DNA of 64,000 nucleotides from Escherichia phage FL31. The DNA lies in the sequence record PP400782. One strand, 5' to 3'. Below, piece after piece: positions 10,728 through 44,679 of the stretch (the stretch's first letter is position 1; the number at the start of each line of letters is the position of its first letter). The notes below the pieces were generated by a model. It was not told the DNA's origin. It saw only the letters and a program-made list of their open reading frames with translations, and ran no database searches. A program made the translations under genes and the position numbers.

Positions 10728-10728
10728 A

Positions 10729-10944: not shown

Positions 10945-11485
10945 ATAAAAAATCCAAACTAGGCGAATCGCTAACAACTTCCTTCTTTTCAGCCCCAGGA
11001 GCTTTATAAGCGGATTCTTCATAATGCGTCATTTTATCGTAGATGTCTTGAATAAACGTTTCATCTACCAACGCTACCATATCATCGTCATGACTGTCGT
11101 AGACATTATGAACGAAGTAACTATATTTCTTTGCAACTTCCTTACGTTCTTTTTTGATACGTTGGACAAAAGCATTAAAACAAGCTCGAGTTATGTATGC
11201 ATGTGGGTTATTGTACTTAGTTTCGTCGAAATTATGAAGTCCCTTAATAGAGGCTTCAATCCCATCTGCAATCATCTCCTGCTTCCAAGACTGGGTATAT
11301 CCTGAAAAGTTGAAACGTTTGGACAGGCCTTCGGCGATAAGCATAATTGCTAAACCGATGGTATCATTCTGACGAATAATTTTGTTTGGGTCTTTATTAT
11401 TTAAGAGCTCCTTTTTCCACTCGATTATAGCGGCGAGAAGCTCTTTATTATTCACATAGTTATTTTTAGGTTTTTGTTCAGTCAT
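10928..11485 (-). CDS. 55: Late-transcription sigma factor gp55
   Basis: ATG at 11485 with GAGG RBS; [35 protein letters not shown]...[36 protein letters not shown] matches recalled T4 gp55. Confidence 0.9.
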
Positions 11486-18267: not shown

Positions 18268-18673
18268 TATTTTTCCTTTCATCAATTAAATATGCAATGC
18301 CAAATACAATACATGTAATAAAACCTGTGATACAGATAGAAACCAACAACACTGTACCAAAGAACCAAATCAAGTTATCTTTAGTAGTTTGTTTGATATC
18401 CATCTCACGAATTTCTATAGCTATCGTATCACCTTTATTCAGAAGCGTATAAAACGATGGCGATACACGCCTGTCAAAAACTCGTCCTTGCTCATCTTTA
18501 TAGACTGCAATAAATTCTAATTTAGAATATTTTCCTGTAGATTGGCCTGAGATTAATTCCACTACCTCCACAGGAATTACTTTAGTTTCCATGTAAGTAT
18601 TCTGACTGTTCCAAATGAATGGAATAATAGCAAAAACTAAAGCTGCGATAAAACAACGAAGGCTATATCTCAT
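18260..18673 (-). CDS. Membrane protein (two predicted TM helices)
   Basis: 137 aa; hydrophobic N- and C-terminal segments. Confidence 0.5.
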   Translation of the reverse strand: MRYSLRCFIAALVFAIIPFIWNSQNTYMETKVIPVEVVELISGQSTGKYSKLEFIAVYKDEQGRVFDRRVSPSFYTLLNKGDTIAIEIREMDIKQTTKDNLIWFFGTVLLVSICITGFITCIVFGIAYLIDERKNNV

Positions 18674-18978
18674 TATAATGTTCTCTCAAATTTGTGGAAG
18701 CATTTACGGCATTTCAATTTCAAGTTATCAGTGGTCCAGTTAACCAGTTGGACTTGGATAGTTCCACATTCCGGGCATGGATGTTTTGCTGCCGATTTGG
18801 CAGCATTTTCACGTCGTTCAACCATTTTCATTATTTCGTTCCATGCCGGAGGAACGAACTCTTCTTCACCGTGGATTTTATCTCGCTGAACAAATTCAAT
18901 CTTTGAACTATCGTCAATAAACTTAACCAAGCGGTGATTAGTGTTCATATCAATATCCTCTAGAAGACGTAGGTTCAT
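18673..18978 (-). CDS. Zinc-ribbon protein
   Basis: 101 aa; CPECG...CRKC. Confidence 0.5.
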   Translation of the reverse strand: MNLRLLEDIDMNTNHRLVKFIDDSSKIEFVQRDKIHGEEEFVPPAWNEIMKMVERRENAAKSAAKHPCPECGTIQVQLVNWTTDNLKLKCRKCFHKFERTL

Positions 18979-19928
18979 TATAACACCTCAATGGCATTTC
19001 GTAAACCGTCCGCTTTCGCATTCAGAGCTTTTAATGATTTAGTTTGTTCTGCAATTTGGGCTTCGACTTCTTTCAGACGAGATTTGAGATATTCGCGTTC
19101 TTCAGCCATGATATCGACCTTTTCTGCTTTAGGTTCTTTAATAGGCTTAGGTTTATACGTATTAGGGTTCTTCAGCTTAATTCGGGTACGAGAACTGTAT
19201 AACATTGAACCGTTATCTTCGGATTCGTCGAACGTTTCAACAACATCCATAGTCTCTAACAATGTAATAAGTTTATAAGACAACGAACGAATAGTTTTGT
19301 TGTGCTTATTAATTTCTTCGGCTTTCATGGTACCGAGATTACGTGAGTAATAATAAGGAACCTGGATATCAATTGATAATGATGCGTTACCATTACCGGT
19401 TGGTTTGAATACTGCAGTAACCCAATCTTTAACATGAACTTTATTTGTACGACCATCACCGCCTGTGAATAATTTACGAGAATGTTTAAAAAGCATATTC
19501 ACTTGTTTATTGAATTCACAAGCAAATTTATCAGCGAATTTAGTTTCAGGAATGGTAGTTAACCAATCAGCCAAATGAGTCTTTTTAACATCATTAACAA
19601 TAGTGAATTCAACCAAATCGGTTTTAGATGTCACAGATTTAATAAAGTTCGGCTTCATAAAGTTTTTGATGTTATCACGAGCCACAGTAGAAGATAATAA
19701 ACGAGAACGTTTGAACCATTGAAGCAGTGTCCCTAATGAATGAGAATACGCATTCTGAGTATCTTTACAGATATGATTTTCTTGGCCTGTGTATGTACCA
19801 AAATCGCGAAGAATACCACTTACTACATCTCGGTGTGGAACATCAAATCCTAGTGCGCCAGTAGCGCGCTGAGCATGAACGTTAGCGATAAGGCCGGCAA
19901 AGTATTCAATGTAATGTGAACGTGTCAT
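18978..19928 (-). CDS. Hypothetical protein with C-terminal coiled coil
   Basis: 316 aa ORF, ATG at 19928. Confidence 0.55.
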   Translation of the reverse strand: MTRSHYIEYFAGLIANVHAQRATGALGFDVPHRDVVSGILRDFGTYTGQENHICKDTQNAYSHSLGTLLQWFKRSRLLSSTVARDNIKNFMKPNFIKSVTSKTDLVEFTIVNDVKKTHLADWLTTIPETKFADKFACEFNKQVNMLFKHSRKLFTGGDGRTNKVHVKDWVTAVFKPTGNGNASLSIDIQVPYYYSRNLGTMKAEEINKHNKTIRSLSYKLITLLETMDVVETFDESEDNGSMLYSSRTRIKLKNPNTYKPKPIKEPKAEKVDIMAEEREYLKSRLKEVEAQIAEQTKSLKALNAKADGLRNAIEVL

Positions 19929-31584: not shown

Positions 31585-31697
31585 TTAGTTTCTCTTTTAG
31601 GTTGGGCCATTCCGTGGCGCATGAATTGTCCATTTCTGTATTTACCCCTCCAAGTAATTATGAATATACTATCACAATTCTAGGAGAAAGTAAACTG

Positions 31698-32000
31698 TTA
31701 TTTATCTTTAATTACTTTAGCTGCTTCGATAGCCGCTTGCTGAAGGTCATCCATAGACATACCGAATTTAGAAGCAAAGTTATCAATTTTCTTTTCGACA
31801 GCATTCAAAGGCTTGGCCTGTTTACCTTCATTAGCGCCAGGAAGAGCGAGAATACGCTCTTTGTCAATATAAAGGCTTACAAGTTTCTTACGGTCTTTAT
31901 CGGACAAATCATGAAATGAATGGGCCTTTTTATTTATAGCGGCTTCTAATTTACCTGCACTCACTCGCGCTTCAGTAATAAATTCTTGATATGTTTTCAT
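31698..32000 (-). CDS. ipII: Internal protein II-like (capsid targeting sequence)
   Basis: 100 aa; N-terminal MKTYQEFITEA capsid-targeting motif. Confidence 0.7.
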   Translation of the reverse strand: MKTYQEFITEARVSAGKLEAAINKKAHSFHDLSDKDRKKLVSLYIDKERILALPGANEGKQAKPLNAVEKKIDNFASKFGMSMDDLQQAAIEAAKVIKDK

Positions 32001-32041
32001 ATGTTTCCTTTAAATGTAAATAGGTCTGAGTATTAGCTTTA

Positions 32042-32620
32042 TTAGGAATTACGGGCTGCATTAGCAACGGCGTAAGCGTACTGAACATTAGCGTCTTTAA
32101 ACGTGCCCTTAGTTGTATCTAGTTCTACCTTAAAACCGCCTTTAGCCATAACATCGGCAAATTCTTTACGGAAAGCCATTGCATCAAGACCTTTCCATGA
32201 TGATTTATGCTTGGCAAATTCAAGACCTGCGAAGTTGACAGCTTTAGCTAATTTATTATCAATGACCCATTTACCTGCTTTAGGCACAAACTTCGGACCT
32301 TTTTGTTTAGAGAACAGTTTTAAATTCCAGCGACGAAGGTCACTGTCGGCTTTAACAAAAGCTGCGTCTAAGTTACTAGCAACAACATCTTCAATATGAG
32401 CAAATTTAAGTCCGTCAACTTCAATATTTAGATCATTACGCCAGCGTAGTCCTTCCCAAGCGAAGGCTTTAAAGTCGGAAGCCTTTGTAGCTAAGTACCG
32501 TTCAATAGGAGCAGTTTTAGGGTCAAAGCCGTTTCCGCCACGATAAGTCCACTCGTCTTTATTAATGCCTTGAGCTTTTCCTGCAAAGGCCTCGGCGATA
32601 AATTCTTTATATGTTTTCAT
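32042..32620 (-). CDS. ipIII: Internal protein III-like
   Basis: 192 aa; MKTYKEFIAEA N-terminus; size matches T4 IPIII. Confidence 0.7.
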   Translation of the reverse strand: MKTYKEFIAEAFAGKAQGINKDEWTYRGGNGFDPKTAPIERYLATKASDFKAFAWEGLRWRNDLNIEVDGLKFAHIEDVVASNLDAAFVKADSDLRRWNLKLFSKQKGPKFVPKAGKWVIDNKLAKAVNFAGLEFAKHKSSWKGLDAMAFRKEFADVMAKGGFKVELDTTKGTFKDANVQYAYAVANAARNS

Positions 32621-32645
32621 TTTGTTCCTATTGATTTAATTTATG

Positions 32646-32960
32646 TTATTCTTTAGGGAAGTTTTTAGAGTATGCGTCATAAAGTTTATTACCGATGCGA
32701 CGGAAGACTTTAGCTGCAAAACGGTTTTCAGGGTTTTTAATCATGATTTGCATCATGTAAGTTCCTGCATCCGAAAGAGCTTCTTCATAGTACCCATTAA
32801 TTTCTTTAAGAGTCCTACGTTTACCACCAGGACCATCAACAGTAATTTTCCATTTACCAGTAGAAGTGCGGCTCGGTGGTTCAACTTGTTCAATCCAAAT
32901 ATAACCACCTTCAACGCGTTGGTTGGCGGATTCTGCAATAAATTCTTTATACGTTTTCAT
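32646..32960 (-). CDS. Internal-protein-like protein (CTS-bearing)
   Basis: MKTYKEFIAES N-terminus, 104 aa. Confidence 0.6.
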   Translation of the reverse strand: MKTYKEFIAESANQRVEGGYIWIEQVEPPSRTSTGKWKITVDGPGGKRRTLKEINGYYEEALSDAGTYMMQIMIKNPENRFAAKVFRRIGNKLYDAYSKNFPKE

Positions 32961-33023
32961 TTTTGTTTCCTTGTTTGTTTTGATAGAGTAATTATACCAT
33001 ATTAATACTTAAGCGTAAACAAT

Positions 33024-33284
33024 TTAAGCTTTACCGTCAGAAATAATTCCGAAGTTGTTAAAATCGTATCCAATATCGTCAACATCTACTTTAGGACTTG
33101 CTACAACATAAGCAATTTCACTACGTTTTGCATAGGTGTTGATTTCTTTACCATCGCCACCTAAGAAAGAATACCCATTACGTTTTAATGAGCCAAAGTC
33201 TTCCGCATCACCAATGAAAGCTTTAACTTTAAATTTAGGACCTTTGACATCTGTTTCAATGATAAATTCTTGATACATTTTCAT
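33024..33284 (-). CDS. Internal-protein-like protein (CTS-bearing)
   Basis: MKMYQEFIIET N-terminus, 86 aa. Confidence 0.6.
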   Translation of the reverse strand: MKMYQEFIIETDVKGPKFKVKAFIGDAEDFGSLKRNGYSFLGGDGKEINTYAKRSEIAYVVASPKVDVDDIGYDFNNFGIISDGKA

Positions 33285-33290
33285 TTTTCC

Positions 33291-33704
33291 TTAGTAAATT
33301 GATTTACCATAGTATTTGTACCAAGTAGGACGCTGAGCAATTTTTTCATCTAAGCGTGCTTGACTTATCGCAATGGACGCTTCGGACGGGACATAATTAT
33401 TACGAAATTCTACAGGAATATCGGAAATATCCTGGACAGTCGTGTCCTTGATTTTGAAACCACGTTTCAAACATTCGGCTATTAGCTCGATTTGACGTAA
33501 ACGTAAAAATTCGAGTTTGTCGTAAAAGAATGTTACGTGACCTGTGCCTAAGATAAATGTTGGAGAGATTTTAAAATCCTTTACACGTTTACCGTTTTGA
33601 ACATGTTTACGGACTGCACCAAATACGCGTGGTAATTCACGATACTCAGCCATAAGATGTTGGTCGGTCAGTTCAGAAACAAGTGTTAAATTGATACGGG
33701 TCAT
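33291..33704 (-). CDS. denV: Endonuclease V (pyrimidine dimer DNA glycosylase) DenV
   Basis: ATG at 33704; [35 protein letters not shown]... matches recalled T4 DenV. Confidence 0.9.
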
Positions 33705-33709
33705 AATTT

Positions 33710-33761
33710 CCTCCAAGTAGTTGATGAATGTATAGTATCAAAGTCCTTGGAGGAAGTAAAC
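33710..33761 (-). promoter_or_regulatory. PeSL-like early promoter with 8-bp inverted repeat, upstream of denV
   Basis: Minus strand GTTTAC...TACTAT; arms CCTCCAAG/CTTGGAGG. Confidence 0.55.
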
Positions 33762-33762
33762 A

Positions 33763-34044
33763 CTATTTTTCTGAAGCGCCTGAAATATATTTTTCAAGAC
33801 GCTGTTTCATCAACGAGCCGTTCTTAGCGATTTCTTCCGGTTTATCGCACATACGCAACAATGCTTCAAGCTTAACGATATCACTGGTGCGCTCAAATTT
33901 GCGAGTATCTATCTTACTAGCAAGTTCAGAAATACGTGCTAATAGACTTTCGGCTTCAACCAAAGCTGCACCTAGCTTAGTTGCAAATGTGTCAGTAGCT
34001 TCGTTAAGAATAGATTCCGATAAAAATTCACTATATGTTTTCAT
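33763..34044 (-). CDS. Internal-protein-like protein (CTS-bearing)
   Basis: ATG at 34044 gives [11 protein letters not shown]...; overlaps lysozyme stop (ATGA). Confidence 0.55.
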
Positions 34045-34529
34045 ATATACGCTTTCCAAGTTCCTGTTTTAAATGTTGAGATTACGCGTTTCGCGCGATT
34101 AGGTGTCTGACGATACCATTTAGATTGGGCTAGATTTACTGCCGCTTCGTCCCAACGTTTCTGTTGAAGCATACGAAGAGAATTAGTAAAACCGGCGACG
34201 CCTGCTACACCCATTTGGAAGACCATATTGACCAATGCACAACGACGAACCGCATCTAAAAAATCATATACCGGTTTAAGTTTAGCATTACCCAAGATTC
34301 CGCGAACGGCTTTATCAACGTCTTCATTAAATAGCTTTTCAGCCTCATCAAGGGTAATTGTACCGTTGCATTTACGACCGATCATTCTGTCAAGTTCAGC
34401 TTTAGCTACGGCTAAAGACGGGTTCTTTGTTACCAAATGGCCTATGCCAATCGTCCAAAAGCCTTCAGTGTCTTTGTATAAAGTCAGTCTAAGACCTTCG
34501 TCATTACGAAGCATTTCAAATATATTCAT
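34041..34529 (-). CDS. e: Lysozyme (endolysin) e
   Basis: ATG at 34529; [32 protein letters not shown]... matches recalled T4 lysozyme. Confidence 0.95.
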
Positions 34530-34563
34530 AATACCTCCCACGTTTATAGGAGGTATTTATTAC

Positions 34564-35037
34564 TTATAGGAGGGTAGTGAGCACCTTATATAATGATTTG
34601 CCCATTACATATTCCCATTGAGAAGGTTTAATTAAAGCGAATGCATCAAATTCAGGAATCTGTCGTCCGTCTGGGAATGTATGATAGGAATTACAAACAC
34701 TGTTTCTGAATTGCTCGTGCTCTACAGGGATGGTATATTGGAACAGATGAATATTCTTATTGTCTGAGTAATGATGTTCACCTAGGTCTTTCAGGAAGGC
34801 AGGGTCATATTGTGTAAACCCAGTTTCTTCTTCGCATTCACGAATAGCGGCTTCAATAGGAGATTCGCCAGGTTCGACACGGCCTTTAGGAATATCCCAC
34901 CGATGAGCTAAAGAACCTTTAGGACGAGAACCAGTTACACGGCCCATGAATAATTCTTTATCTTCGGTAAGGAAAATAATACCAGCTGATAGTTCTTTCA
35001 CTTTATTTTTCTTACTCATCATCTCAAATTCCTGCAT
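34564..35037 (-). CDS. nudE: Nudix hydrolase NudE
   Basis: Nudix box GRVEPGESPIEAAIRECEEETGF; start among three Met codons uncertain. Confidence 0.85.
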   Translation of the reverse strand: MQEFEMMSKKNKVKELSAGIIFLTEDKELFMGRVTGSRPKGSLAHRWDIPKGRVEPGESPIEAAIRECEEETGFTQYDPAFLKDLGEHHYSDNKNIHLFQYTIPVEHEQFRNSVCNSYHTFPDGRQIPEFDAFALIKPSQWEYVMGKSLYKVLTTLL

Positions 35038-35417
35038 TCGGTGATAAAACGTTCAACTTCATTATTCTTGGCTTTTATCTTGTCTTTACGTTCCTGTAAA
35101 CTACTTTTAACAAGATTAATAATGATGCCTACAGTACCTCCACCAATAATACCACCAATAATACTTACGATAGTAGATGCTAATAAGATAGCGATAATAT
35201 CTAGTATAGCAAAGGCACTTACTTTAGTACTAAAAAACCACACTGACGGTACAAATATAATCCATCCTGTTATCCATTGACACTTATTGAAAAACTTTTC
35301 AAGCTCAGCTTGAGTTGTTCGTATTACTTCATCGATAGGTTGATATCCATTAATGTATCTGTTCACGATAATACCTGCTGGCTGGTTGATTTTAAATTCT
35401 TGGCAAATATGTTTCAC
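35019..35417 (-). CDS. Membrane protein
   Basis: 132 aa with hydrophobic segments (GGIIGGGTVGIIINLV). Confidence 0.5.
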   Translation of the reverse strand: MKHICQEFKINQPAGIIVNRYINGYQPIDEVIRTTQAELEKFFNKCQWITGWIIFVPSVWFFSTKVSAFAILDIIAILLASTIVSIIGGIIGGGTVGIIINLVKSSLQERKDKIKAKNNEVERFITECRNLR

Positions 35418-35499
35418 TAAGTAGGATGGACATCCTGTCCAATCTACTGAATAATACGAAATACCTTCGTTGCATTAGACCAATATGTTTTGTTAATCA

Positions 35500-36186
35500 T
35501 TACCAGCCTTCCATAGGGAATTCCAGATAAACTTGAGCGTTGACACGAATTTCATTGGTAATCTTTTTAACTCGGTCTGTATTACGAGATACACGTCCAA
35601 ACCAACGCCATCCGTTACTAATTGCACGAGAACCAGTGTGCCATGTTTGCCAATCAAATTGAAGAAGAGTACGGTCTGGAGCTTCCCATTTCTCTAGTTC
35701 GCCTTTTTCGATTTTTTCGAGGACTTCTTTGTGCCACTGGCGATAGATAAGTTCGCCATCAGGAATCTGACTGAACTCTGCAGTTCCTGTTGCAAAATGA
35801 GTAGGACACACATCAGCGTTAACAAGACCAAGAATATGTTCAGACAAATAGCGAGGATTGTCATAGTCAGGTTGTCCTGCAGTAATAAAGTGTTGACCAA
35901 CTGGAATATCAGGGCGTGGAACATCGTCATGGTGATATCCAGGAATAGCAGGGTACCAGCCAGGCATCAGCATGTGGACTCGTGAATCAAATACAACCTG
36001 GTCGGTGTTCCAATCATCCGGCAAGTTCATGATGAAGCTGCGAGTAATAGGACCGCCGTTATTATAAGCAAATTCTAAACTACAGTTGAAGAACATAGGC
36101 TCGTTCTTGATTTTATCATTAGAAATACCGCCGGCAAAACCACCTACTGCACGAGCTTGACTATTAAACACTTTAGAACTATTCAT
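35500..36186 (-). CDS. Hypothetical protein
   Basis: 228 aa ORF, W/H/D-rich, no motif recognised. Confidence 0.55.
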   Translation of the reverse strand: MNSSKVFNSQARAVGGFAGGISNDKIKNEPMFFNCSLEFAYNNGGPITRSFIMNLPDDWNTDQVVFDSRVHMLMPGWYPAIPGYHHDDVPRPDIPVGQHFITAGQPDYDNPRYLSEHILGLVNADVCPTHFATGTAEFSQIPDGELIYRQWHKEVLEKIEKGELEKWEAPDRTLLQFDWQTWHTGSRAISNGWRWFGRVSRNTDRVKKITNEIRVNAQVYLEFPMEGW

Positions 36187-36187
36187 A

Positions 36188-36493
36188 TTATTTTCCTCGA
36201 CATTCTTTAATGAAATTTTCTAGATTGGTAGATTCAATAGCTTTTTTACGAGCTTCTGCGTGTTCTTCTTCGGTCAATTTATGTTTATAATTGACCCAGA
36301 CATTATGGTCGAAACTAGTCGTGGCATATAATAACAAAGCTCCGACGAATAATAAAAACGGTGATAAGAATATACAACCAGGCACACCATCCATACTGTA
36401 AGCCTTTTGTAATACTGCAACAGAAAGAGTTGCGTAAAAAAGTGATGCAAATATTGTTAAAAGACCAATTCGGTTGGTTTCGCCTAATTTCAT
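36188..36493 (-). CDS. Small membrane protein
   Basis: 101 aa, two hydrophobic helices; GAGGAG RBS. Confidence 0.5.
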   Translation of the reverse strand: MKLGETNRIGLLTIFASLFYATLSVAVLQKAYSMDGVPGCIFLSPFLLFVGALLLYATTSFDHNVWVNYKHKLTEEEHAEARKKAIESTNLENFIKECRGK

Positions 36494-36512
36494 AATATTC
36501 TCCTCATGTTTT

Positions 36513-36552
36513 GGTAGGACTACTATAACATAGTCCTATAATTGTGTAAACA
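36513..36552 (-). promoter_or_regulatory. PeSL-like early promoter cassette
   Basis: ggtaggactactataacatagtcctata + gtaaaca; TAGGACTA/TAGTCCTA arms around the -10. Confidence 0.55.
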
Positions 36553-36563
36553 GTTTTGCGAAA

Positions 36564-37520
36564 TTATTTGAAAGGTTTTACCATATGGAAATTTTGTTTG
36601 AAACGTTTGACGTAATCGTCATGTCCTAAGCTTTGGTACATACTTACTACTTTGCTGTAGTTTTCCCAGGCGTATTCACGGAACCAACCGGAGGTGATGC
36701 TTGTACAGACCTTTTCCAATGCCGTCATAAAACTGGCTTCAGGGTTAATTTTAAAGTCATTAGGAATCTGAGAACGTTCTAATGCTAATACACATGATTC
36801 TTCATATACACCGGCCAATTTGACCATTTCCGGTAATGATTCGAACTTCTCGCGTGAGGTCATGACTTCAGAACCATCTTTCATGTAAAATGTATACGCT
36901 GGACGGTCTGTTAGTGCAATGGCTTCATGAATAGTATCATGGTCATATGTATAGATGTCATCTTTAAAGAATGCGCTTTTAGAAGTGTCAAGAACCGGGT
37001 GAGCATAATTCAAGGTTTCTTTCTGGCGTTTCAGCATAATTTCAGTAAGTTCATCGTTCAGTGTAACACCTTTACCACGAAGATACTGAATATGGTTCAT
37101 AGTCTTTAAAAAGAATGGATTATTTTTCTTGAAACGATGAGACATCTTAATTGCAAGACACATCTCAGGAGTTGCCCAGTAAAACCCGTTAAAACGATCT
37201 TTAGTCAAATTTTTCTTGGCGTATTTTAAAAGGTCATAAGAAGACGTGAAATCTTCAGGAGTGAGTTCACCGACTAATTCACGGACATTAGTGATTGCCG
37301 GAACAATATATGCTTCAAAATGAGTTTCGCGTCCATTATGGAAGCATTTGAAAACTTGGACATCAGGGTTATCTTGGTGAACATATACACCCATCATTTG
37401 ATTTTTGAATGCATTCCAAGAACCTTGGTCCGCAATAAAGTCCCAATCACTATTTTTAATAGCGCTAGAATCAATAAGACCGTGATAGTGAAGTGCACGA
37501 GAACCAATAACTAACATCAT
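36564..37520 (-). CDS. Hypothetical protein
   Basis: 318 aa ORF. Confidence 0.55.
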   Translation of the reverse strand: MMLVIGSRALHYHGLIDSSAIKNSDWDFIADQGSWNAFKNQMMGVYVHQDNPDVQVFKCFHNGRETHFEAYIVPAITNVRELVGELTPEDFTSSYDLLKYAKKNLTKDRFNGFYWATPEMCLAIKMSHRFKKNNPFFLKTMNHIQYLRGKGVTLNDELTEIMLKRQKETLNYAHPVLDTSKSAFFKDDIYTYDHDTIHEAIALTDRPAYTFYMKDGSEVMTSREKFESLPEMVKLAGVYEESCVLALERSQIPNDFKINPEASFMTALEKVCTSITSGWFREYAWENYSKVVSMYQSLGHDDYVKRFKQNFHMVKPFK

Positions 37521-37548
37521 AATATTTTCCTCGGATTAATTCATTAAC

Positions 37549-37800
37549 TTAAATTTCACGACATGCGATATTATATTCATCCCAGAGGTCATCGTGTGAA
37601 GCCTCTACTAATGGAACGATTGTACCATTTATGTCTTCATTATAAGGGCAAATTGTACAATGTGCATCTTCGAATCGGATGCCTTTGTGTTCAGATTTTT
37701 TATAACGCATATCGAATATCTTTGCAAACTTTTCACGAGTAATGGTTTTACCAACCACTTCGGTTCCGATACTTTCGTAATAAATCATTGTGGACTCCAT
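37549..37800 (-). CDS. Hypothetical small protein
   Basis: 83 aa ORF. Confidence 0.5.
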   Translation of the reverse strand: MESTMIYYESIGTEVVGKTITREKFAKIFDMRYKKSEHKGIRFEDAHCTICPYNEDINGTIVPLVEASHDDLWDEYNIACREI

Positions 37801-37807
37801 TTAATTT

Positions 37808-37846
37808 GATAGGACTACTATAACATAGCCCTATCTTGTTGTAAAC
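37808..37846 (-). promoter_or_regulatory. PeSL-like early promoter cassette
   Basis: gataggactactataacatagccctatc + gtaaac. Confidence 0.55.
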
Positions 37847-37851
37847 TGTTT

Positions 37852-38049
37852 TTAGCAAGAATAACTAGATGATACCCAGCCTTGAACAGTAATACTATTG
37901 TGGGATAATGAGATCGCGTCCTGGAGATTCAGACCTGCGTTATCTTCAATCCATAATGTAACTTCTTCGCGTTCTTCTGTTGCAATTTGGAACAGGTTTT
38001 CTAGAGCAGCTACTGCGGTACGTACAGCACAATCTAATTCACGAGACAT
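37852..38049 (-). CDS. Small protein, WVSSSxxC family paralogue C
   Basis: 65 aa ending ...QGWVSSSYSC. Confidence 0.5.
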   Translation of the reverse strand: MSRELDCAVRTAVAALENLFQIATEEREEVTLWIEDNAGLNLQDAISLSHNSITVQGWVSSSYSC

Positions 38050-38058
38050 ATGGTTTCC

Positions 38059-38331
38059 TTAGCAAGTGTGAGAAGATGCAACCCAACCACCAGTTTCGAG
38101 GCTCAGGTTGTAGTCATATTGGTAAACGTCCGCCCATTCAGCATAGCCGTTTTTTGTACAACGTTCAAGATCGGCTTTAAGATGTCCGGGTGAATGATAG
38201 GTTCCACCCATACCATAAGCTGGGTACAAGTTGAATGTTGTGTTTTGTTTATCAGCAATTTCTTTGGCAGCCTCAATAGCTGCATAGATTTTTGCTACAG
38301 CTTCGGCCAGTTCGGTTTGTTCTTTAGACAT
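38059..38331 (-). CDS. Small protein, WVSSSxxC family paralogue B
   Basis: 90 aa ending ...GGWVASSHTC; MSKE N-terminus. Confidence 0.5.
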   Translation of the reverse strand: MSKEQTELAEAVAKIYAAIEAAKEIADKQNTTFNLYPAYGMGGTYHSPGHLKADLERCTKNGYAEWADVYQYDYNLSLETGGWVASSHTC

Positions 38332-38340
38332 AATGATTCC

Positions 38341-38646
38341 TTAGCACAACGCAGAAGACGAAACCCAAGCACCTTCAGTAATAACGTATCCATTACCTTC
38401 ACGCTTAACATCGCCGCCATTATTTTCAATTTCATCTTTCATCCACTGGGATACGATTTCACCCTTAGGATAATAAGTACGACCGCTACCATAATCACCT
38501 ACAGAAAATGATACGGCATATTGGTCTGCGATCTTTGTTGCTTCTTCTTCGATACGTTCAGCTTGATTCAGAAGTTTATAAATTGCATCTGAAGCGGATT
38601 TGGCATCATTAAACTCTGGTACTTTAATTTCAATAATCTTACTCAT
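38341..38646 (-). CDS. Small protein, WVSSSxxC family paralogue A
   Basis: 101 aa ending ...GAWVSSSALC; MSK N-terminus. Confidence 0.5.
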   Translation of the reverse strand: MSKIIEIKVPEFNDAKSASDAIYKLLNQAERIEEEATKIADQYAVSFSVGDYGSGRTYYPKGEIVSQWMKDEIENNGGDVKREGNGYVITEGAWVSSSALC

Positions 38647-38744
38647 TTTCTACATTCCTTAATAAAGTTTTCGATTGTTTCATTTTCACGTCTAGCTAGG
38701 AGTTCATTATAACTAATCATTTGAGAAGCGTAAACAGCATAATT

Positions 38745-39167
38745 TCAGTTGAGGCTTTTGCATCTTATTTCCTTAACGAATTCCATAGCTTCTTCATATT
38801 CATACTTTTTAACAGCTTCATCATACTGAGCTTGGGCTTTTGCGCACTGAACTTTCCATTCTCTTAATCTGGCTCTGTGATGACGTCCTTGGTACCAATA
38901 TCCCATCCAGTTAATAGGCATTAATAAAAACGGTATAATAAGTGGTGCGACGAACATTAATGAAAATGCTGCATCAGACGATATAACTTCACTAGAATCT
39001 AAAACAGCTCCTATAATCATAAAGATTAAAAATGCTAAAGCTAAAATAGGGCCAAATAATACTTCATTTGGGATTAATTTACGCTTGTATTCATACGCCC
39101 AGGGCTTAATTGGCATGTATAGGGTTGGCTTTGACATATTCTCTACATTCCATAATAAATTGCTCAA
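38745..39167 (-). CDS. Membrane protein
   Basis: 140 aa with TM helices; basic C-terminus. Confidence 0.5.
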   Translation of the reverse strand: MSNLLWNVENMSKPTLYMPIKPWAYEYKRKLIPNEVLFGPILALAFLIFMIIGAVLDSSEVISSDAAFSLMFVAPLIIPFLLMPINWMGYWYQGRHHRARLREWKVQCAKAQAQYDEAVKKYEYEEAMEFVKEIRCKSLN

Positions 39168-39729
39168 GGATTAAATTGTTAGTGAAATTAGGACTAACAA
39201 CCATAGTTTCATAAAGCGCATCAATAGCACTTAAAGCATCAGCTCTTTTAAGCAAAGGCTTGCCTTCATACATAGTTTCAGAATCGACGATTAACGTAAA
39301 GTAATATTTTTTATTATCGACTAGAACTTCTGTATCGATATAAAACATATTAGACCTTAAAAGCTTATCTCTAAAACCATAATAATCTTCAGAGCGTTCG
39401 CTGATATATTCCCATTCAGTGTTTAAACAACAAACAGACCATGTAGGAGCAACGAAATCAGTGAATCTAATATCATGGTCTGCAACTAGTTTAGCAATAG
39501 CTCCGATATCATGAATCATAATACCTGGGGCTAATAAAGATTTTCTGTTATGGCTAGCCGTTTTCTCGGTGGTCTCATAAGAAGCCGACCAGTACCATTT
39601 ACGACCGGTTGCGGCATATCGTAATGAATCAACTAAAGACGTAGGTGGATTTACCTTATTTCGGAACTCTTCGAACATTGAGTCAATATCATTATTTTGG
39701 TTTCGCATGTTAACTCCTTTATTATCCAA
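39106..39729 (-). CDS. Hypothetical protein
   Basis: 207 aa ORF. Confidence 0.5.
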   Translation of the reverse strand: MDNKGVNMRNQNNDIDSMFEEFRNKVNPPTSLVDSLRYAATGRKWYWSASYETTEKTASHNRKSLLAPGIMIHDIGAIAKLVADHDIRFTDFVAPTWSVCCLNTEWEYISERSEDYYGFRDKLLRSNMFYIDTEVLVDNKKYYFTLIVDSETMYEGKPLLKRADALSAIDALYETMVVSPNFTNNLILEQFIMECREYVKANPIHAN

Positions 39730-39757
39730 AAGGAGGACCGGAGTCCTCCGTATTATT

Positions 39758-40351
39758 TTATTTCAAAGAGTTAATATATTCTTGTACATCAGCAGAAGTG
39801 GTTTCGACACCGACCGGAGTGCCATTGAATGTTTCGACACGAGTCAGAGTGTCTTCGATATCAACCTTAGTCAGTGCAGCGATTTCAATTACATCATCGG
39901 CCGTAGAGATACCAAGGGCATTGGCTGCTCGAGTTTCACGAATGTATTCGAGTTTGATTGCCAGGTTCTGACGAGCATCGTCAAGTTCAACCACCTTACG
40001 AGCAATTTCAATTCGCATAGCGGCATACCCGTCAGCTTTTGTATTAAGTTGTTCGGCAGTTCGACGATACAGAAGACCAAGCTTAGCATGCATGGTAACA
40101 TCTTGTCCTTCGGCCAGGAGCTTACGAATTTCACGTTCCTTAGAAGCGGCTTGCTTGTTCTTTTCATTAACAAGTTCGCGAATACGTTTTTCTTCATTAA
40201 TAGATTTAACAGAAGCCGTTTTTAGTTCTTTGATTTGGGTAATCAACTTATCTGCAGCTGCGTTATACTGTTCTTCAACAGTCAGATTTTTAGCCATAGC
40301 AGTACCCAGTTTAGTGCGGATGAATTCAACAAGTTTCTTCAGTGTGTTCAT
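39758..40351 (-). CDS. Coiled-coil protein, possibly PspA/IM30-like
   Basis: ATG at 40351; long heptad-like K/E/A-rich helices. Confidence 0.35.
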
Positions 40352-40374
40352 ATTATTACCTTTCAATTGGTGGT

Positions 40375-40422
40375 TTATTATCCAACGAGAGCATTATACT
40401 CTGCTCTCAAGAGTTTGTAAAT
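40375..40422 (-). repeat. PeSL-like early promoter cassette; 48-nt copy B (47/48 identical to 12217-12264)
   Basis: ttattatccaacgagagcattatactctgctctcaagagtttgtaaat. Confidence 0.6.
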
Positions 40423-40649
40423 TATTTTTTAATCAAATTGACATAAAACTTGGCGTCTTCGGGGTGCATGCCTTCGCAGTATTCTTCAACCATGAACTTC
40501 TTAATAGCTTCATAAGGACCACTCAGATTAAGCTCAGTTGTCCAGAACTTGGAATCTTGGGCTGAATCGATACGAACTTCAGGGTGACGGTTGCGAATAA
40601 CTTCTTCGGTGTATTCATAATCAACGACATCAATACTAACTGTAGCCAT
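40422..40649 (-). CDS. Hypothetical small protein
   Basis: 75 aa ORF. Confidence 0.45.
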   Translation of the reverse strand: MATVSIDVVDYEYTEEVIRNRHPEVRIDSAQDSKFWTTELNLSGPYEAIKKFMVEEYCEGMHPEDAKFYVNLIKK

Positions 40650-40668
40650 TTTGTTTTCCTCTTGATTT

Positions 40669-40709
40669 GATAGGAGACTACTATAACATAAACTTACTTA
40701 GATGTAAAT
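40669..40709 (-). promoter_or_regulatory. PeSL-like early promoter cassette
   Basis: gataggagactactataacata...gtaaat. Confidence 0.45.
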
Positions 40710-40885
40710 TATTTCAACGTCACCTTTAGCTGCTTTATAACCTTCAGCCCAAGATACAACAGAGTTTTTATCTGAGGATTCAAATTCAGGCATTGGACTT
40801 TCACCAATATTCACACAGTATGTTTCTTCATTTTCATCGAACCAAATAATTAAAGTAGTCATTTTGTTTACTCCTCTGTAGTTGA

Positions 40886-40921
40886 TAAGTCTATAGTATC
40901 ACCATCCTTGGTGCTTGTACA
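40886..40921 (-). promoter_or_regulatory. PeSL-like early promoter cassette
   Basis: Minus strand TGTACA-N17-TACTAT with CACCAAGG/ATGGTG imperfect inverted repeat; precedes an unlisted ~57-codon ORF starting at 40861. Confidence 0.45.
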
Positions 40922-40930
40922 TCATTATTT

Positions 40931-41236
40931 TTAATTTTTCCAACTTAACAACTTGTAGTGTCCTTCATTCATACGTGGTTTATCCCAAGAAATACTAATA
41001 TATGATTCGCTGTCAATAGAAGTCGCCGGGTTTTTCTCTACCGTAAGACCTTCACTTTCCAGCCATTCAATAGTATTTGCGCATAAATCAGAAGAACACC
41101 TAATCGGAAACCGGCAAGATTTTTCACCTTTAGCTGCAGTGTTATACATCTTTTCTAAAATACGCTTTTGCACGTTTTTAAAAATAGTTTCAGCAGATTC
41201 TTCAGATTTTTTATTCAGTTCAGTGTAAAGACTCAT
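40931..41236 (-). CDS. Hypothetical protein
   Basis: 101 aa ORF with GAGGAG RBS. Confidence 0.5.
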   Translation of the reverse strand: MSLYTELNKKSEESAETIFKNVQKRILEKMYNTAAKGEKSCRFPIRCSSDLCANTIEWLESEGLTVEKNPATSIDSESYISISWDKPRMNEGHYKLLSWKN

Positions 41237-41255
41237 AATATTCTCCTCATGTTTT

Positions 41256-41294
41256 GATAGGTCTATAGTAACACATCTAGGGAAGAAGTAAACA
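41256..41294 (-). promoter_or_regulatory. PeSL-like early promoter cassette
   Basis: gataggtctatagtaacacatctagggaagaagtaaaca. Confidence 0.55.
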
Positions 41295-41324
41295 ACTTTT
41301 TCAGTAAGTTATAGACCCCCTAAA

Positions 41325-41340
41325 GGGGACCGAAGTCCCC
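41325..41340 (-). other. UUCG-tetraloop hairpin downstream of the 41346-41972 gene
   Basis: ggggaccgaagtcccc, overlapping a second potential stem cccc-taaa-gggg. Confidence 0.45.
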
Positions 41341-41345
41341 ATTCT

Positions 41346-41972
41346 TTACTTACGAGTTTTTGCATACTGAGCAGCGTCAGCAGCCAAACGACCTGCCTGA
41401 CGAAGTTTTTCTTTAATCGCATCGTGAAGTGGTTGAGTGTACTTCAAACCTTCGATAGTCAAATAAAGACGATAAAGGTCCGGGGTATCAAGGTTGTTGA
41501 TATGTTGGCCATTACGAAGAATATTGAATTCACGAACGAGTGAAGATGTATCGGATTCAATATCACGAACAAGCGAAGATAGTTGTTTATATTTTTTTTC
41601 CAGACTAGAAGTATCAAACTTAAGAGCAGGAGCTTTAGGAGTTGCTTTTACTTCAGGCTTAGGCTCAGGTTTTGCTATTGCTTTAGGGGTCGCAGGTTTA
41701 GGAATGGAAGGAGTAGGTTTTACTTTAGGCGAACCCGATTTAGCAGAAACACCACCACTAACAATATCTTTGAATGCTTTAGAAGCTCTGTAATATTCTT
41801 TTTGGCTGGAAGTGTCGATACCGTACATGGCTTGAACGTTTTTGAAAAACTCTGTACTAGTTTTTGTACCAGAAATAGCATCGTAAGCAGCTTGCCATTT
41901 CTCTTTTGTCATACGTACACCGGCTTCGGTGATTACTTCCGTTTCGGCTAAAAATTCATTAAAAGTATACAT
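41346..41972 (-). CDS. Internal-protein-like protein with CTS and Pro/Lys-rich linker
   Basis: ATG at 41972 gives MYTFNEFLAETEV...; SPKVKPTPSIPKPATPKAIAKPEPKPEVKATPKAPA low-complexity segment. Confidence 0.55.
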   Translation of the reverse strand: MYTFNEFLAETEVITEAGVRMTKEKWQAAYDAISGTKTSTEFFKNVQAMYGIDTSSQKEYYRASKAFKDIVSGGVSAKSGSPKVKPTPSIPKPATPKAIAKPEPKPEVKATPKAPALKFDTSSLEKKYKQLSSLVRDIESDTSSLVREFNILRNGQHINNLDTPDLYRLYLTIEGLKYTQPLHDAIKEKLRQAGRLAADAAQYAKTRK

Positions 41973-42021
41973 CAATGGTCCTTAGAAAGTAGGTTTATTG
42001 TTTACTATATTTATACAAAAA

Positions 42022-42046
42022 AGCCCCAACCTTTCGGAAGGGGCTA
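42022..42046 (-). terminator. Terminator-like hairpin plus U-run at the distal end of the tRNA/stable-RNA cluster
   Basis: agccccaacctttcggaaggggct preceded on plus strand by aaaaa. Confidence 0.5.
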
Positions 42047-42084
42047 TATACCTTGTCGGGGTTCCACCTGCTAAGGCAAGTGTT

Positions 42085-42179
42085 TGTACGAAACGCCGGG
42101 ATTCGAACCCGGTTATTAAGTAGTTGACGCTACTCAATATTTTTAAAAGGCCATATCTCGACCATATCCGAACGTTCCG
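42085..42179 (-). ncRNA. tRNA-like small RNA candidate (acceptor-like stem and canonical T-arm but no canonical anticodon arm)
   Basis: Minus strand CGGAACG...CCGGG-TTCGAAT-CCCGG-CGTTTCG; about 92 nt; a second stable hairpin GGCATTAA...TTAATGCC lies at 42261-42292. Confidence 0.35.
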
Positions 42180-42347
42180 TCAAAAACGCTACTCGGCTTA
42201 CGGCAAAGATATTTCCTCGAATCGATAATTCGGTGCGCCGTTTCTGCTGTGATATAAGGGGGCATTAACAAAACATAAAGATTTATTAATGCCAGTCCTT
42301 ACTCAGGGAACATCAGTCCGACGACTTACCGGTAGCGACCCGGCTTC

Positions 42348-42692
42348 TTATTTTGGCATATCATCAATTTGCTCTCGACGCCGACGCCATAGATTAATCG
42401 CTTCATAAACACATTCTGCGTTTGGTATATGACGGCAATAATATAATGATTCGCGTTTCTGGAATCGATGTTGCAATGGGATTTCGTTTAAAAGGTCTTT
42501 ACGGTCAAAGTATTCAAAACTAGTTAACCCGGAACGGTTTTTAATGAACTTCCAATGACCAAATTCATTTTGAACATAGATGTAATCTGCATGTTGGTAT
42601 AACAAATTAATCAATCGGTCTGAAATAACTGTATCATGTTCGTTAAAATAAAACGTTAAATCATGAACTACTAAGTAAACATTACCTTTCAT
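42348..42692 (-). CDS. Hypothetical protein between tRNA-Arg and the stable-RNA region
   Basis: ATG at 42692 with GAGGAAA RBS; the longer track ORF would overlap tRNA-Arg. Confidence 0.5.
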   Translation of the reverse strand: MKGNVYLVVHDLTFYFNEHDTVISDRLINLLYQHADYIYVQNEFGHWKFIKNRSGLTSFEYFDRKDLLNEIPLQHRFQKRESLYYCRHIPNAECVYEAINLWRRRREQIDDMPK

Positions 42693-42710
42693 ATTTTCCT
42701 CACTTAAAAT

Positions 42711-42787
<77 letters not shown>

Positions 42788-42887
42788 ATGATGCGGCTTT
42801 GGGTGTTTCAGTGTTACTCGTTTGTAGGTTCTACTTTTAACCCTTATTCGAACAACTTACCTACCTAAGAGCGTACTCACCGCGAAT

Positions 42888-42962
42888 TGGTGGCCCTGGC
42901 TGGTTTCGATCCAGCTACCTATCAGTTATGAGCTGACAGCTCTCCCATTGAGCTACAGGGCC
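42888..42962 (-). tRNA. tRNA with CAT anticodon (Met, or Ile if lysidine-modified as in T4 tRNA-Ile)
   Basis: Acceptor GGCCCTG/CAGGGCC, D stem GCTC/GAGC, anticodon loop CTCATAA, T stem GCTGG/CCAGC, encoded CCA. Confidence 0.7.
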
Positions 42963-43024
42963 TAAATAACTTTCTATTATGAAAGGCACTTGAGGGAGCA
43001 CCTTTGGTAATAGAGGGTAGATTA

Positions 43025-43049
43025 ATAATAACACATAATTCTTAAAGCA
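43025..43049 (-). promoter_or_regulatory. Middle-promoter-like element (MotA box + -10) upstream of the tRNA cluster
   Basis: Minus strand TGCTTTA-N12-TATTAT. Confidence 0.45.
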
Positions 43050-43058
43050 AATTACGTT

Positions 43059-43349
43059 TTACCGTACCATATTAATGTAGTTATATTCAATGCAACGTAA
43101 TTTCAAAGGGTTCTTGAAAATATCATATTCAAGAGGGCCTTTTTCTGTTTCAATAAAGAAATCAAAGTTAACTGTGTTAAATTTAACGTCTTCACAGAGT
43201 AATTTAACTTGTGAAGATGAACGGTCGATATAAACCTTTTCAACCTCAAAGATAGTCAGAATACCGTAGTCATTAACCAGTGCTTTAGCTGCACGTTGGT
43301 CGCTTTCATATCCGTTCTCAATGGACGATACTTTAGCATAAAGAATCAT
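43059..43349 (-). CDS. Hypothetical protein
   Basis: 96 aa ORF. Confidence 0.5.
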   Translation of the reverse strand: MILYAKVSSIENGYESDQRAAKALVNDYGILTIFEVEKVYIDRSSSQVKLLCEDVKFNTVNFDFFIETEKGPLEYDIFKNPLKLRCIEYNYINMVR

Positions 43350-43708
43350 GAATGTTCCACCATTTCAAAGGTATGAGCATCAACAATATGATACCAGTCA
43401 AAATTTTCTTCCGCGTTTTTATAAATTTCGCGAAGAGCTTCAACAGTTTTTCCTGTAGCAACAAGATCGTCAATACCACCAAGAGGATAACAGTAATAAC
43501 CAGCAAACAGAAGGAAATTAATAGTTTCTGTAGGTTCTGGATGCAGAACTCCGTTATCGTCTACCACTTCAAAGAAAGTGTAAGAAGGAGTACAAGTTTT
43601 AATCCAAGCCCATGCTTGAGCTGCCGAATCAAATGGTTTGCGTATCAAACGACAATCAGGGTCTTTAGAAGGATTTGCTTCAAAATCTGCATATACATGA
43701 TATTTCAT
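43346..43708 (-). CDS. Hypothetical protein
   Basis: 120 aa ORF. Confidence 0.5.
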   Translation of the reverse strand: MKYHVYADFEANPSKDPDCRLIRKPFDSAAQAWAWIKTCTPSYTFFEVVDDNGVLHPEPTETINFLLFAGYYCYPLGGIDDLVATGKTVEALREIYKNAEENFDWYHIVDAHTFEMVEHS

Positions 43709-43915
43709 TTACTCACCTTTTGCAATTTTATCCATAACAATAGCGATTAAACCGATTAGAAATGCTACTACCAATGAGATAGAATTTTCTGTTGTTGTCA
43801 GTAGTCCACAAATGAATCCTACAAACATCGAAAAACTAAAAGCCATTGAAGCAATTACTACAGCAACATTACGAATCAGTTCAGCGCGTTTCATTTTATT
43901 TCTCCATTTACTCAT
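43709..43915 (-). CDS. Small membrane protein
   Basis: One TM helix; better RBS at internal Met (ATG 43894). Confidence 0.45.
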   Translation of the reverse strand: MSKWRNKMKRAELIRNVAVVIASMAFSFSMFVGFICGLLTTTENSISLVVAFLIGLIAIVMDKIAKGE

Positions 43916-43922
43916 TTGTTTT

Positions 43923-43961
43923 GATAGGACTACTATAACATATCCCTATAGGCTTGTATAC
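43923..43961 (-). promoter_or_regulatory. PeSL-like early promoter cassette
   Basis: gataggactactataacatatccctata...gtatac. Confidence 0.5.
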
Positions 43962-43963
43962 CT

Positions 43964-44228
43964 TTATTTCAAATATATTGCGTATTTTTTATAGCCACCA
44001 GGCTCGTGTCGAAGACCTTTATCATTCGCAAAACGTTGAATGTTATTGAACTGGTTTTCATCAAGTTCGGATGTGTTAAATATAAAAAAAGTTTCGTTTG
44101 TTACCAAGCGTGATATGCGGAGTTAAGTCAATGTTATACAAATTAAGAATATCAGCAATAACCTGATTAACCGCTTTGTTAATTTTCACGCCAGACGATT
44201 CTGAGATGAATTCGTTGAAAGTTTTCAT
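43964..44228 (-). pseudogene. Internal-protein-like gene interrupted by a frameshift at a 7-nt homopolymer (or a short 50-aa CTS protein)
   Basis: ATG at 44228 gives MKTFNEFISESSGVKINKAVNQV... and stops after 50 codons just past the A7 run at 44084-44090; removing one base restores an ~87-aa reading frame ending at 43964. Confidence 0.45.
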
Positions 44229-44251
44229 TTTAGGTTCCATTTGGTTGTTTT

Positions 44252-44290
44252 GATAGGACTACTATAACATAGTCCTATCATGTTGTAAAT
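44252..44290 (-). promoter_or_regulatory. PeSL-like early promoter cassette with perfect 10-bp inverted repeat
   Basis: gataggacta-ctataaca-tagtcctatc + gtaaat; minus strand ATTTACA-N17-TATAGT. Confidence 0.6.
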
Positions 44291-44601
44291 TATTTTATGC
44301 CTTTAGAAGAAATGGTATTTTGGCGTTTGGCCCCTGTTTGTGAAAAATCGTGGTTATCGATTTGGTCAACTCTCATAACACCAAATGCGGATTTAATTTT
44401 GGCTTTTGAACCTTTTTTGATACTAATTATCATATAAGTATCATTTTTCTTATATTCGAAATTTGTTACTTCAACGCCTTGATTAGAAATTGACTTAATA
44501 ATAGCATTAGCGTATTCATCATCTAATGGACCGGTAGTGTTAATAATAAAATTTTTATCTGGTTTAGTAGCTTCAGCGATAAACTCTTGATAAGTTTTCA
44601 T
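44290..44601 (-). CDS. Internal protein I-like (CTS-bearing), adjacent to 57B
   Basis: ATG at 44601 gives MKTYQEFIAEATKPDKNF..., 103 aa; position corresponds to T4 ipI. Confidence 0.6.
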   Translation of the reverse strand: MKTYQEFIAEATKPDKNFIINTTGPLDDEYANAIIKSISNQGVEVTNFEYKKNDTYMIISIKKGSKAKIKSAFGVMRVDQIDNHDFSQTGAKRQNTISSKGIK

Positions 44602-44627
44602 TTGTTTTTCCGTTTGGTTTGTGATTT

Positions 44628-44666
44628 GATAGGATGATAGTAACACACCATCATCCTTATGTAAAC
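44628..44666 (-). promoter_or_regulatory. PeSL-like early promoter cassette
   Basis: gataggatgatagtaacacaccatcatcc + gtaaac; GGATGAT/ATCATCC arms. Confidence 0.55.
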
Positions 44667-44679
44667 TGTTTTGTGAAAA

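Follow-up and report, generated by a model that had tools for sequence, protein, structure and literature searches.

A stretch of 64,000 nucleotides from Escherichia phage FL31 (sequence record PP400782; hereafter the window, at its full length) carries, between positions 31,698 and 44,601, eight minus-strand open reading frames (ORFs) that begin with a sequence resembling MKTYQEFIAE. They very probably make up the internal-protein (IP) gene set of an RB69-like T-even phage, whose products would be targeted to the head by the shared leader, processed by the prohead protease gp21 and injected with the DNA, and whose repertoire would be diversified by cassette exchange. The window is 98% identical to Escherichia phage vB_EcoM_G2469 across 98% of its length and 95-97% identical to many other genomes of Mosigvirus (RB69-like Tevenvirinae). 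An earlier note on this DNA had pointed to the same eight ORFs as an enlarged family of internal-protein-like genes, and both the ORF listing and a motif scan find them where it had placed them. Seven of the eight belong to recognised IP families (six through PHROG families labelled as internal head or virion proteins, and a 104-aa ORF through its Ip10 annotation), and the same proportion lies in the two polymorphic IP loci, the e/denV region and the site beside 57B. The exception on both counts is a 208-aa ORF, which maps to a family without a functional label (phrog_2280) and sits at a third site.

The leader pattern M..[YFW].EF[ILVM].[ED], scanned in six frames over the whole window, gave exactly eight matches, all of them at the starts of minus-strand ORFs and none elsewhere, while chance matches numbered 0 in 200 mononucleotide shuffles and averaged 0.005 in 200 triplet shuffles. 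The consensus across the eight starts is M-x-x-[Y/F]-x-E-F-[I/L]-x-E: residue 4 is Tyr or Phe and residue 7 is Phe in all of them, residues 8-10 read I/L-x-E and are always followed by Ala, Ser or Thr, and the 93-aa and 208-aa members carry an additional conserved [IL]-x-E|A site. In T4, amber-suppressor genetics of IpIII assigned targeting to leader residues 4 and 7 and processing to residues 8 and 10, and gp21 removes this capsid targeting sequence by cleaving after L/I-x-E (PMC9026906), much as the earlier note had stated. Its other points, that genes of this kind number three in T4 (ipI, ipII and ipIII) and that IPI inhibits host restriction, in this case a type IV restriction enzyme (PMC3012670), were likewise borne out. 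Each of the eight ATGs is preceded by a GGAA or AGGA ribosome-binding site, and over the eleven leader codons the eight copies show 59 synonymous and 103 non-synonymous codon-pair differences, a pattern which indicates that the peptide is conserved and not merely a DNA cassette. The alternative raised alongside the original observation, that the likeness comes from duplication of an untranslated 5' region (5'UTR) or leader DNA, is rejected: the genes have ribosome-binding sites, their ORFs are long and in frame with the leader, the leader codons vary synonymously, and the genetically defined residues are retained in homologues with unrelated upstream DNA.

Behind this conserved leader the bodies diverge, as had been proposed. 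In an all-against-all BLAST comparison, the families match one another in the leader only, with the likeness ending at residue 11, the one exception being the pair formed by Ip7 and the 86-aa protein. Local tandem duplication was considered as the origin of the four neighbouring genes at 31698-33284 and rejected, since no two of their bodies are related. A Pfam search with nine peptides gave no significant match, a sequence search of the PDB with the 208-aa family profile, the Ip7 family profile and the single IpIII sequence gave 0 matches, and no structural likeness to the IPI* fold (two β-sheets flanked by terminal helices) was seen in any extra IP body examined.

Two members of the e/denV locus are direct orthologues of T4 proteins. 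The product of 31698-32000 (100 aa; leader MKTYQEFITE, then A; mature isoelectric point (pI) 9.5) shares 94% amino acid and 94.7% nucleotide identity with T4 ipII and matches phrog_7857 'internal virion protein' over its full length (E = 8e-55), and that of 32042-32620 (192 aa; MKTYKEFIAE, then A; mature pI 9.6) shares 91% and 91.1%, respectively, with T4 ipIII and matches phrog_5341 (E = 1e-117). The GenBank record of phage mogra uses the labels ipII, IpIII, Ip7 and Ip9. The flanking denV and e genes reach just 79% and 77% nucleotide identity to T4, below the values for ipII and ipIII; this gap between ipII/ipIII (31665-32629) and denV/e (33295-34531) looks like the mark of a recent cassette transfer between Tequatrovirus and Mosigvirus, whose DNA modifications probably differ. 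The gene order is e, the 93-aa ORF, denV, the 86-aa ORF, the Ip10-like gene, ipIII and ipII, as compared with e, ipIII, ipII and denV in T4.

The 104-aa ORF (32646-32960; MKTYKEFIAE, then S) is assigned to the Ip10 family: it matches phrog_3966, which is labelled unknown (E = 4.5e-34), is 72% identical to 'Ip10' of Shigella phage SP18 and is the counterpart of RB69ORF124c, while its family, found in 189 phage records, bears the label 'internal head protein' in phages moskry and ADUt. The 86-aa protein (33024-33284; MKMYQEFIIE, then T) is a distant Ip7 paralogue that matches phrog_2667 'internal head protein' (E = 8e-20) and is 93% identical to RB69p125, itself annotated as an internal head protein. 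The 93-aa protein (33763-34044; leader followed by S, second site ILNE|A) matches phrog_3499 'internal head protein' (E = 1e-46) and is 92% identical to RB69p127. This is the member that had been described as following denV; it exists, but its place is between the lysozyme gene e and denV, where its ATG and the stop codon of e overlap in the sequence ATGA, an arrangement from which we read that it is translationally coupled to e. In RB69 (NC_004928, 10135-10220, minus strand), RB69p127 carries two compensating changes separated by 21 nt, a -1 deletion and a +1 insertion, which scramble leader residues 5-12 (MKTYMNFYQNLSLNE...) before the frame is restored and the body continues intact; either the targeting peptide has been lost or the record contains old sequencing errors.

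At the second locus, the gene adjoining 57B (44290-44601; 103 aa; MKTYQEFIAE, then A) encodes Ip7. It matches phrog_2667 (E = 2e-38), is 95% identical to RB69p156 and belongs to a family that mogra and vB_EclM_AS6 list under the annotation 'internal head protein 7' or 'Ip7'; its AlphaFold2 model predicts a ferredoxin-like β-α-β-β-α-β fold (predicted local distance difference test, pLDDT, of 74). The suggestion of a member in the ipI position thus holds for the place, beside 57B, but not for the identity of the gene, as tblastn returned leader-only matches and no IpI orthologue within the window.

Next to it, Ip9 (43964-44228; MKTFNEFISE, then S) is split into an N-terminal part of 50 aa (44228-44076) and a C-terminal part of 47 aa, which runs in the next frame to 43964. 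The frameshift noticed earlier is real: the window has T7 at 44084-44090 where mogra has T5C, and the one extra base splits an 87-aa gene whose two halves match phrog_7673 'internal head protein' at profile positions 1-52 and 48-90. The best database matches to this region measure 400 nt, against 401 nt in the window, and an exact-product look-up found no database record of the truncated product. Taken as it reads, the sequence indicates that Ip9 is inactivated by frameshift. We regard it as possible, if somewhat doubtful, that the gene is not dead, either because the lesion is a homopolymer sequencing error, in which case all eight genes would be functional, or because the slippery T-run yields the full-length protein through occasional +1/-1 frameshifting. 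The defect comes down to one surplus T in a seven-base run, a classic error site; the gene is well kept outside the run, with an N-terminal part identical to mogra Ip9 over 48 aa and a 321-column region that is 97% identical; and it is intact in all its closest database relatives, including mogra and G2469 (87 aa in both). On the other hand, no intact frame can be read from the sequence as it stands, and the change from T5C to T7 also involves a C-to-T substitution and hence is not a pure length error.

The Ip10-like, ip9 and ip7 genes share an upstream module made up of a T4-type early promoter (GTTTAC, 17-18 nt, TAnnAT), the 5'UTR CCTATCAAAAC and a ribosome-binding site, and it can be aligned with the DNA that precedes T4 ipI, RB69 ipI and RB69p156. 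Before the Ip10-like gene it spans 32961-33023 (minus strand, as for the other two), with the -35 box GTTTAC at 33020-33015, the -10 box TATAAT at 32996-32991 and the UTR CTATCAAAAC. Before ip9 (44229-44289) the boxes are ATTTAC and TATAGT, the latter within a hairpin of -17.5 kcal/mol, and before ip7 (44602-44679) they are GTTTAC (44666-44661) and TACTAT, again within a hairpin (-15.4 kcal/mol); the ip7 cassette resembles the upstream regions of T4 ipI and RB69p156 in both sequence and layout. The stem-loops around the -10 boxes of ip9 and ip7 could attenuate upstream transcription and serve as recombination hot spots. Stem-loop elements at IP loci, 'PeSL-like' in the wording of Arbiol et al., who credit them to Repoila et al. 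(1994), have been proposed as recombination sites for IP shuffling (PMC2839356). The namesake PeSL (promoter-early stem-loop) cassettes of RB49 and phi1 likewise combine promoter, stem-loop and ribosome-binding site around accessory ORFs and were proposed to mediate modular exchange (PMC2839356). The elements described here differ from them in being T-even analogues of the T4 early-promoter type, with AT-rich stems, and in reaching into the coding leader, so that recombination would swap bodies behind a fixed targeting peptide.

Conserved modules of early promoter/stem-loop, UTR and leader, set beside unrelated bodies, would offer short homologies for recombination, and cassette exchange between them would maintain IP diversity, which would account for the differing IP combinations of sister phages and for a T4-like ipII/ipIII pair in a new position. 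RB69 has neither ipII nor ipIII, G2469 is without the Ip10-like gene, p000v is without ipII and ip9, and mogra and RB69 carry other leader-bearing ORFs, including different ones at the site between e.8 and the tRNA genes. The Mosigvirus relatives compared hold 5-7 leader-bearing genes each, at the same loci. Judged by these gene counts, eight members, seven of them intact, is the upper end of a normal range and not an unusual expansion; the earlier note was correct that the set exceeds that of T4, but it looks large because T4 is at the low end.

The 208-aa ORF (41346-41972; MYTFNEFLAE, then T; second site VITE|A) is located between e.8-like genes and the genes for tRNA-Arg and tRNA-Met. Its family, phrog_2280 'unknown', is represented in 138 phage records and 18 database clusters and appears as 'hypothetical protein' in each of the matches listed or named. 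The protein is IpIII-sized, with a mature pI of 9.7, and is predicted to consist of a helical N-domain, a Pro/Lys/Ala-rich disordered linker (about residues 74-112) and a three-helix C-domain (AlphaFold2 pLDDT 72). Leaders in the family are canonical or nearly so (MKTYNEFLNES, MLKFKEF.ISEA, MLNFNEFITES, MITFNEFLNES): F7 is invariant, M1 and E10 are nearly so, residue 4 is Y or F in all aligned homologues, and residue 8 is I or L in nearly all. The canonical MKTYNEFLNES occurs in homologues from other genera. The leader, together with another [IL]-x-E-[AS] site that follows it closely, is kept in homologues down to about 33% body identity, and this double cleavage site recalls the 19-residue propeptide of T4 IpI, which ends in ...TITE|A. 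Aligned with hhalign, the 208-aa and Ip7 families match over residues 1-11 and nothing further, and the DNA upstream of the 208-aa family genes is unrelated to the ipI cassette.

What precedes the 208-aa gene is an intrinsic terminator hairpin (42044-42023; -16.4 kcal/mol) followed by a T-run and an exact match to the T4 late promoter, TATAAATA, at 42015-42008 (the whole element covering 42008-42044 on the minus strand), 43 nt upstream of the ATG. This terminator is also annotated in G2469, and the combination of hairpin and TATAAATA recurs upstream of the homologues in IME08 (Dhakavirus, at -33) and vB_EclM-UFV01 (Karamvirus, at -36), whose proteins are 65% and 35% identical to the 208-aa protein, making three genera in total. 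An exhaustive profile search of 1.84 billion representatives returned 13 clusters for the family, all of short phage-like proteins, and no cellular homologue among them. The family is modular: P0023 combines the same N-domain with another C-domain, while mogra_134, P0025 and P0027 combine another N-domain with a related C-domain. At the corresponding site, RB69 (18429-18991, minus strand) carries ORF149c (MKTYAEFLTEA...) and, after it, ORF148c, which seem to be a frameshifted relative, and mogra (10583-11047, minus strand) has a 154-aa ORF (MKSYAEFLTEQ...) with a different N-domain; because both phages carry other leader-bearing ORFs there, this site, too, acts like a polymorphic locus for leader genes, the third one.

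Packaging of the 208-aa protein is likely in view of its basic charge, its conserved leader with two cleavage motifs and the late promoter of its gene, and the gene is, on the same sequence features, most likely a further, late-transcribed member of the IP targeting system at a third locus. We put at about even the chances of a broader proposal, that the protein and its relatives (mogra_134, RB69ORF149c/148c, IME08 orf129 and the Karamvirus and Winklervirus homologues) constitute an unrecognised third class and third locus of capsid-targeted, injected Tevenvirinae proteins. These would be larger proteins of two domains, with N- and C-domains exchanged separately on either side of a basic disordered linker, a dedicated late promoter and two gp21 sites.

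For the set as a whole, sequence features and the orthology to Ip2 and Ip3 come from the window, and the steps of packaging, cleavage and injection are carried over from T4. The leader would dock the precursor on the scaffolding core during prohead assembly, with the aromatic residue 4 and Phe7 as targeting determinants; gp21 would then cut after Glu10 at L/I-x-E; and the mature proteins would stay in the head with the DNA and enter the next host before any phage gene expression, where each body would bind and block one specific host defence. The targets of T4 Ip1-3 are distinct GmrSD-type type IV nucleases that attack DNA containing sugar-modified hydroxymethylcytosine (hmC). Each of these three proteins inhibits one GmrSD variant, with no cross-protection (PMC12373910), and leaderless IpIII rescues infection from inside the cell (Srikant 2022, PMC9391042). 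Of the IPs whose GmrSD targets have been demonstrated, only Ip2 (94%) and Ip3 (91%) have orthologues in the window, and these IpII and IpIII orthologues are predicted to target BrxU/GmrSD-ECOR21-like and GmrSD-ECOR17-like enzymes, respectively. The other six bodies have no similarity to Ip1-3 past the leader, and for these members an anti-defence function is suggested by analogy. The diversified anti-defence arsenal envisaged in the earlier note thus matches the published view of these proteins, although such activity has been shown for T4 Ip1-3 only.

Several observations weigh against this interpretation. Within the window itself there is no display of packaging, cleavage or injection, and the gp21 and scaffold genes lie outside it; literature searches turned up no virion proteomics for either the 208-aa family or the IPs of Mosigvirus. 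When Ip4-10 of T4-like phages were assayed against 15 GmrSD groups, there was no reproducible inhibition (PMC12373910), and the targets of the extra members may therefore not be type IV nucleases. As T4 IpIII mutants show a head-assembly defect too (PMC9026906), anti-defence is not the sole role of these proteins. The mature 86-aa and 93-aa proteins, at pI 5.2 and 6.3, are non-basic, unlike classical IPs. The 208-aa gene falls outside the two loci to which IP genes have been claimed to be confined (PMC2839356), and it alone has an exact late promoter, the others having early-type promoters or depending on read-through; T4 ipI, ipII and ipIII are likewise without an exact late promoter.

Some of these points would suit extra leader-bearing proteins that are mainly structural, that is, core or scaffold accessories or DNA-condensing, charge-neutralising proteins rather than anti-defence effectors, which we consider unlikely. 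Such a role would agree with the strongly basic character of six of the eight mature proteins (pI 9.3-9.7), with the roughly 40-residue Pro/Lys/Ala-rich linker of the 208-aa protein, whose composition is like that of histone-tail DNA binders, and with the missing GmrSD inhibition by Ip4-10, as well as with the T4 findings that IpIII mutants form heads at about half the rate and build up polyheads and that about 1000 IP molecules are embedded in the packaged DNA (PMC9026906, PMC3012670). T4 without all three IPs is, however, viable on laboratory hosts, and all three have specific nuclease targets; two of the members described here are acidic or neutral, and IP gene content varies strongly among near-identical phages, which suits accessory host-range genes better. 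Still less probable is that the common N-terminus merely came along with the recombination cassette (promoter, UTR and first codons) and that some members, especially those of 86, 93 and 208 aa, are unpackaged cytoplasmic proteins. Promoter, UTR and leader do form a single conserved stretch of DNA in three members, as they do for the ipI genes of T4 and RB69, most members have no late promoter, and in the RB69 orthologue of the 93-aa gene, with its scrambled leader and intact body, the body apparently persists without a leader. Against this, five members keep the leader though they have no upstream cassette, many of the leader codon differences are synonymous, the 208-aa family retains the leader positions at ~33% body identity with upstream DNA unrelated to the ipI cassette, and the conserved positions are exactly those defined genetically as serving targeting and cleavage.

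Read as leader-targeted IP genes, the eight ORFs share with T4 IpI-III the ten-residue leader, the targeting and cleavage positions, the neighbourhoods (e/denV and 57B) and two direct orthologues, and differ in the missing IpI orthologue, the gene order and six additional bodies. A further difference lies in the DNA, as that of FL31 probably contains arabinosyl-hmC, shown for RB69 (PMC6024577), and not glucosyl-hmC. The wider T-even IP repertoire (Ip4-Ip13 and more; Repoila 1994 and Comeau 2007, as cited in PMC2839356 and PMC12373910) has the same unrelated small bodies behind a conserved 11-residue leader, two hyperplastic loci and early-promoter/stem-loop elements, and counts Ip7, Ip9 and Ip10 among its members by name. 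The 208-aa family departs from it in its third locus, a terminator and late promoter in place of the early cassette, twice the usual size, two domains, the disordered linker and, in the listed records, the lack of an IP label. DarA, DarB and Hdf of P1 and the inner-body or ejection proteins of phiKZ and SPN3US are also packaged in the head and co-injected to protect the DNA, with propeptides cut after Glu by a prohead protease, but they have no sequence or leader similarity to the IPs and are large proteins with ordered incorporation instead of a portable ten-residue tag.

Published counts of IP variants range from at least 10 to more than 30 (PMC3012670, PMC2839356, PMC12373910), and the view of them as an anti-restriction arsenal goes back to Repoila 1994, as related in PMC3012670 and PMC2839356, and was extended by Srikant 2022 (PMC9391042) and Silas 2025 (PMC12373910). 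The IP family, its leader, its polymorphism, its shuffling cassettes and its anti-restriction role are thus already known, since 1994 and with extensions in 2022-2025. What is left as new is the 208-aa family, which has no annotation and occupies a third, late-transcribed locus, and which is, on its sequence, a plausible member of the known targeting system.

Among the neighbouring genes, three tandem small ORFs of 65, 90 and 101 aa (37852-38646, minus strand) end in W-V-[S/A]-S-S-x-x-C (GWVSSSYSC, GWVASSHTC and AWVSSSALC) and match phrog_4882 and phrog_899, both without a function label. Between nudE and this trio lie two larger, conserved minus-strand ORFs of 228 aa (35500-36186) and 318 aa (36564-37520), which match RB69ORF132c and 134c and have no T4 counterpart and no annotation in the relatives inspected. 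The tRNA-Arg(TCT) and tRNA-Met(CAT) genes are at 42711-42787 and 42888-42962 (minus strand). The first is overlapped by a 130-aa ORF (42348-42740) with a TTG start at 42740, whose true start is probably an internal ATG (114 aa in mogra).

In practical terms, the Mosigvirus catalogue assembled here comprises orthologues of Ip2 and Ip3, four orphan IPs, one pseudogene and one unannotated leader-bearing family. Host immunity encounters IPs before any other phage product, and every new IP body is a candidate inhibitor of a defence that has yet to be matched to one; the ten-residue leader also offers a practical tag with which T4-type heads can be loaded with cargo. If the 208-aa protein and its relatives do form a third class, this would contradict the published confinement of IP genes to two loci and would add a new effector scaffold, or a scaffold for DNA-binding cargo, to the injected arsenal of these phages.

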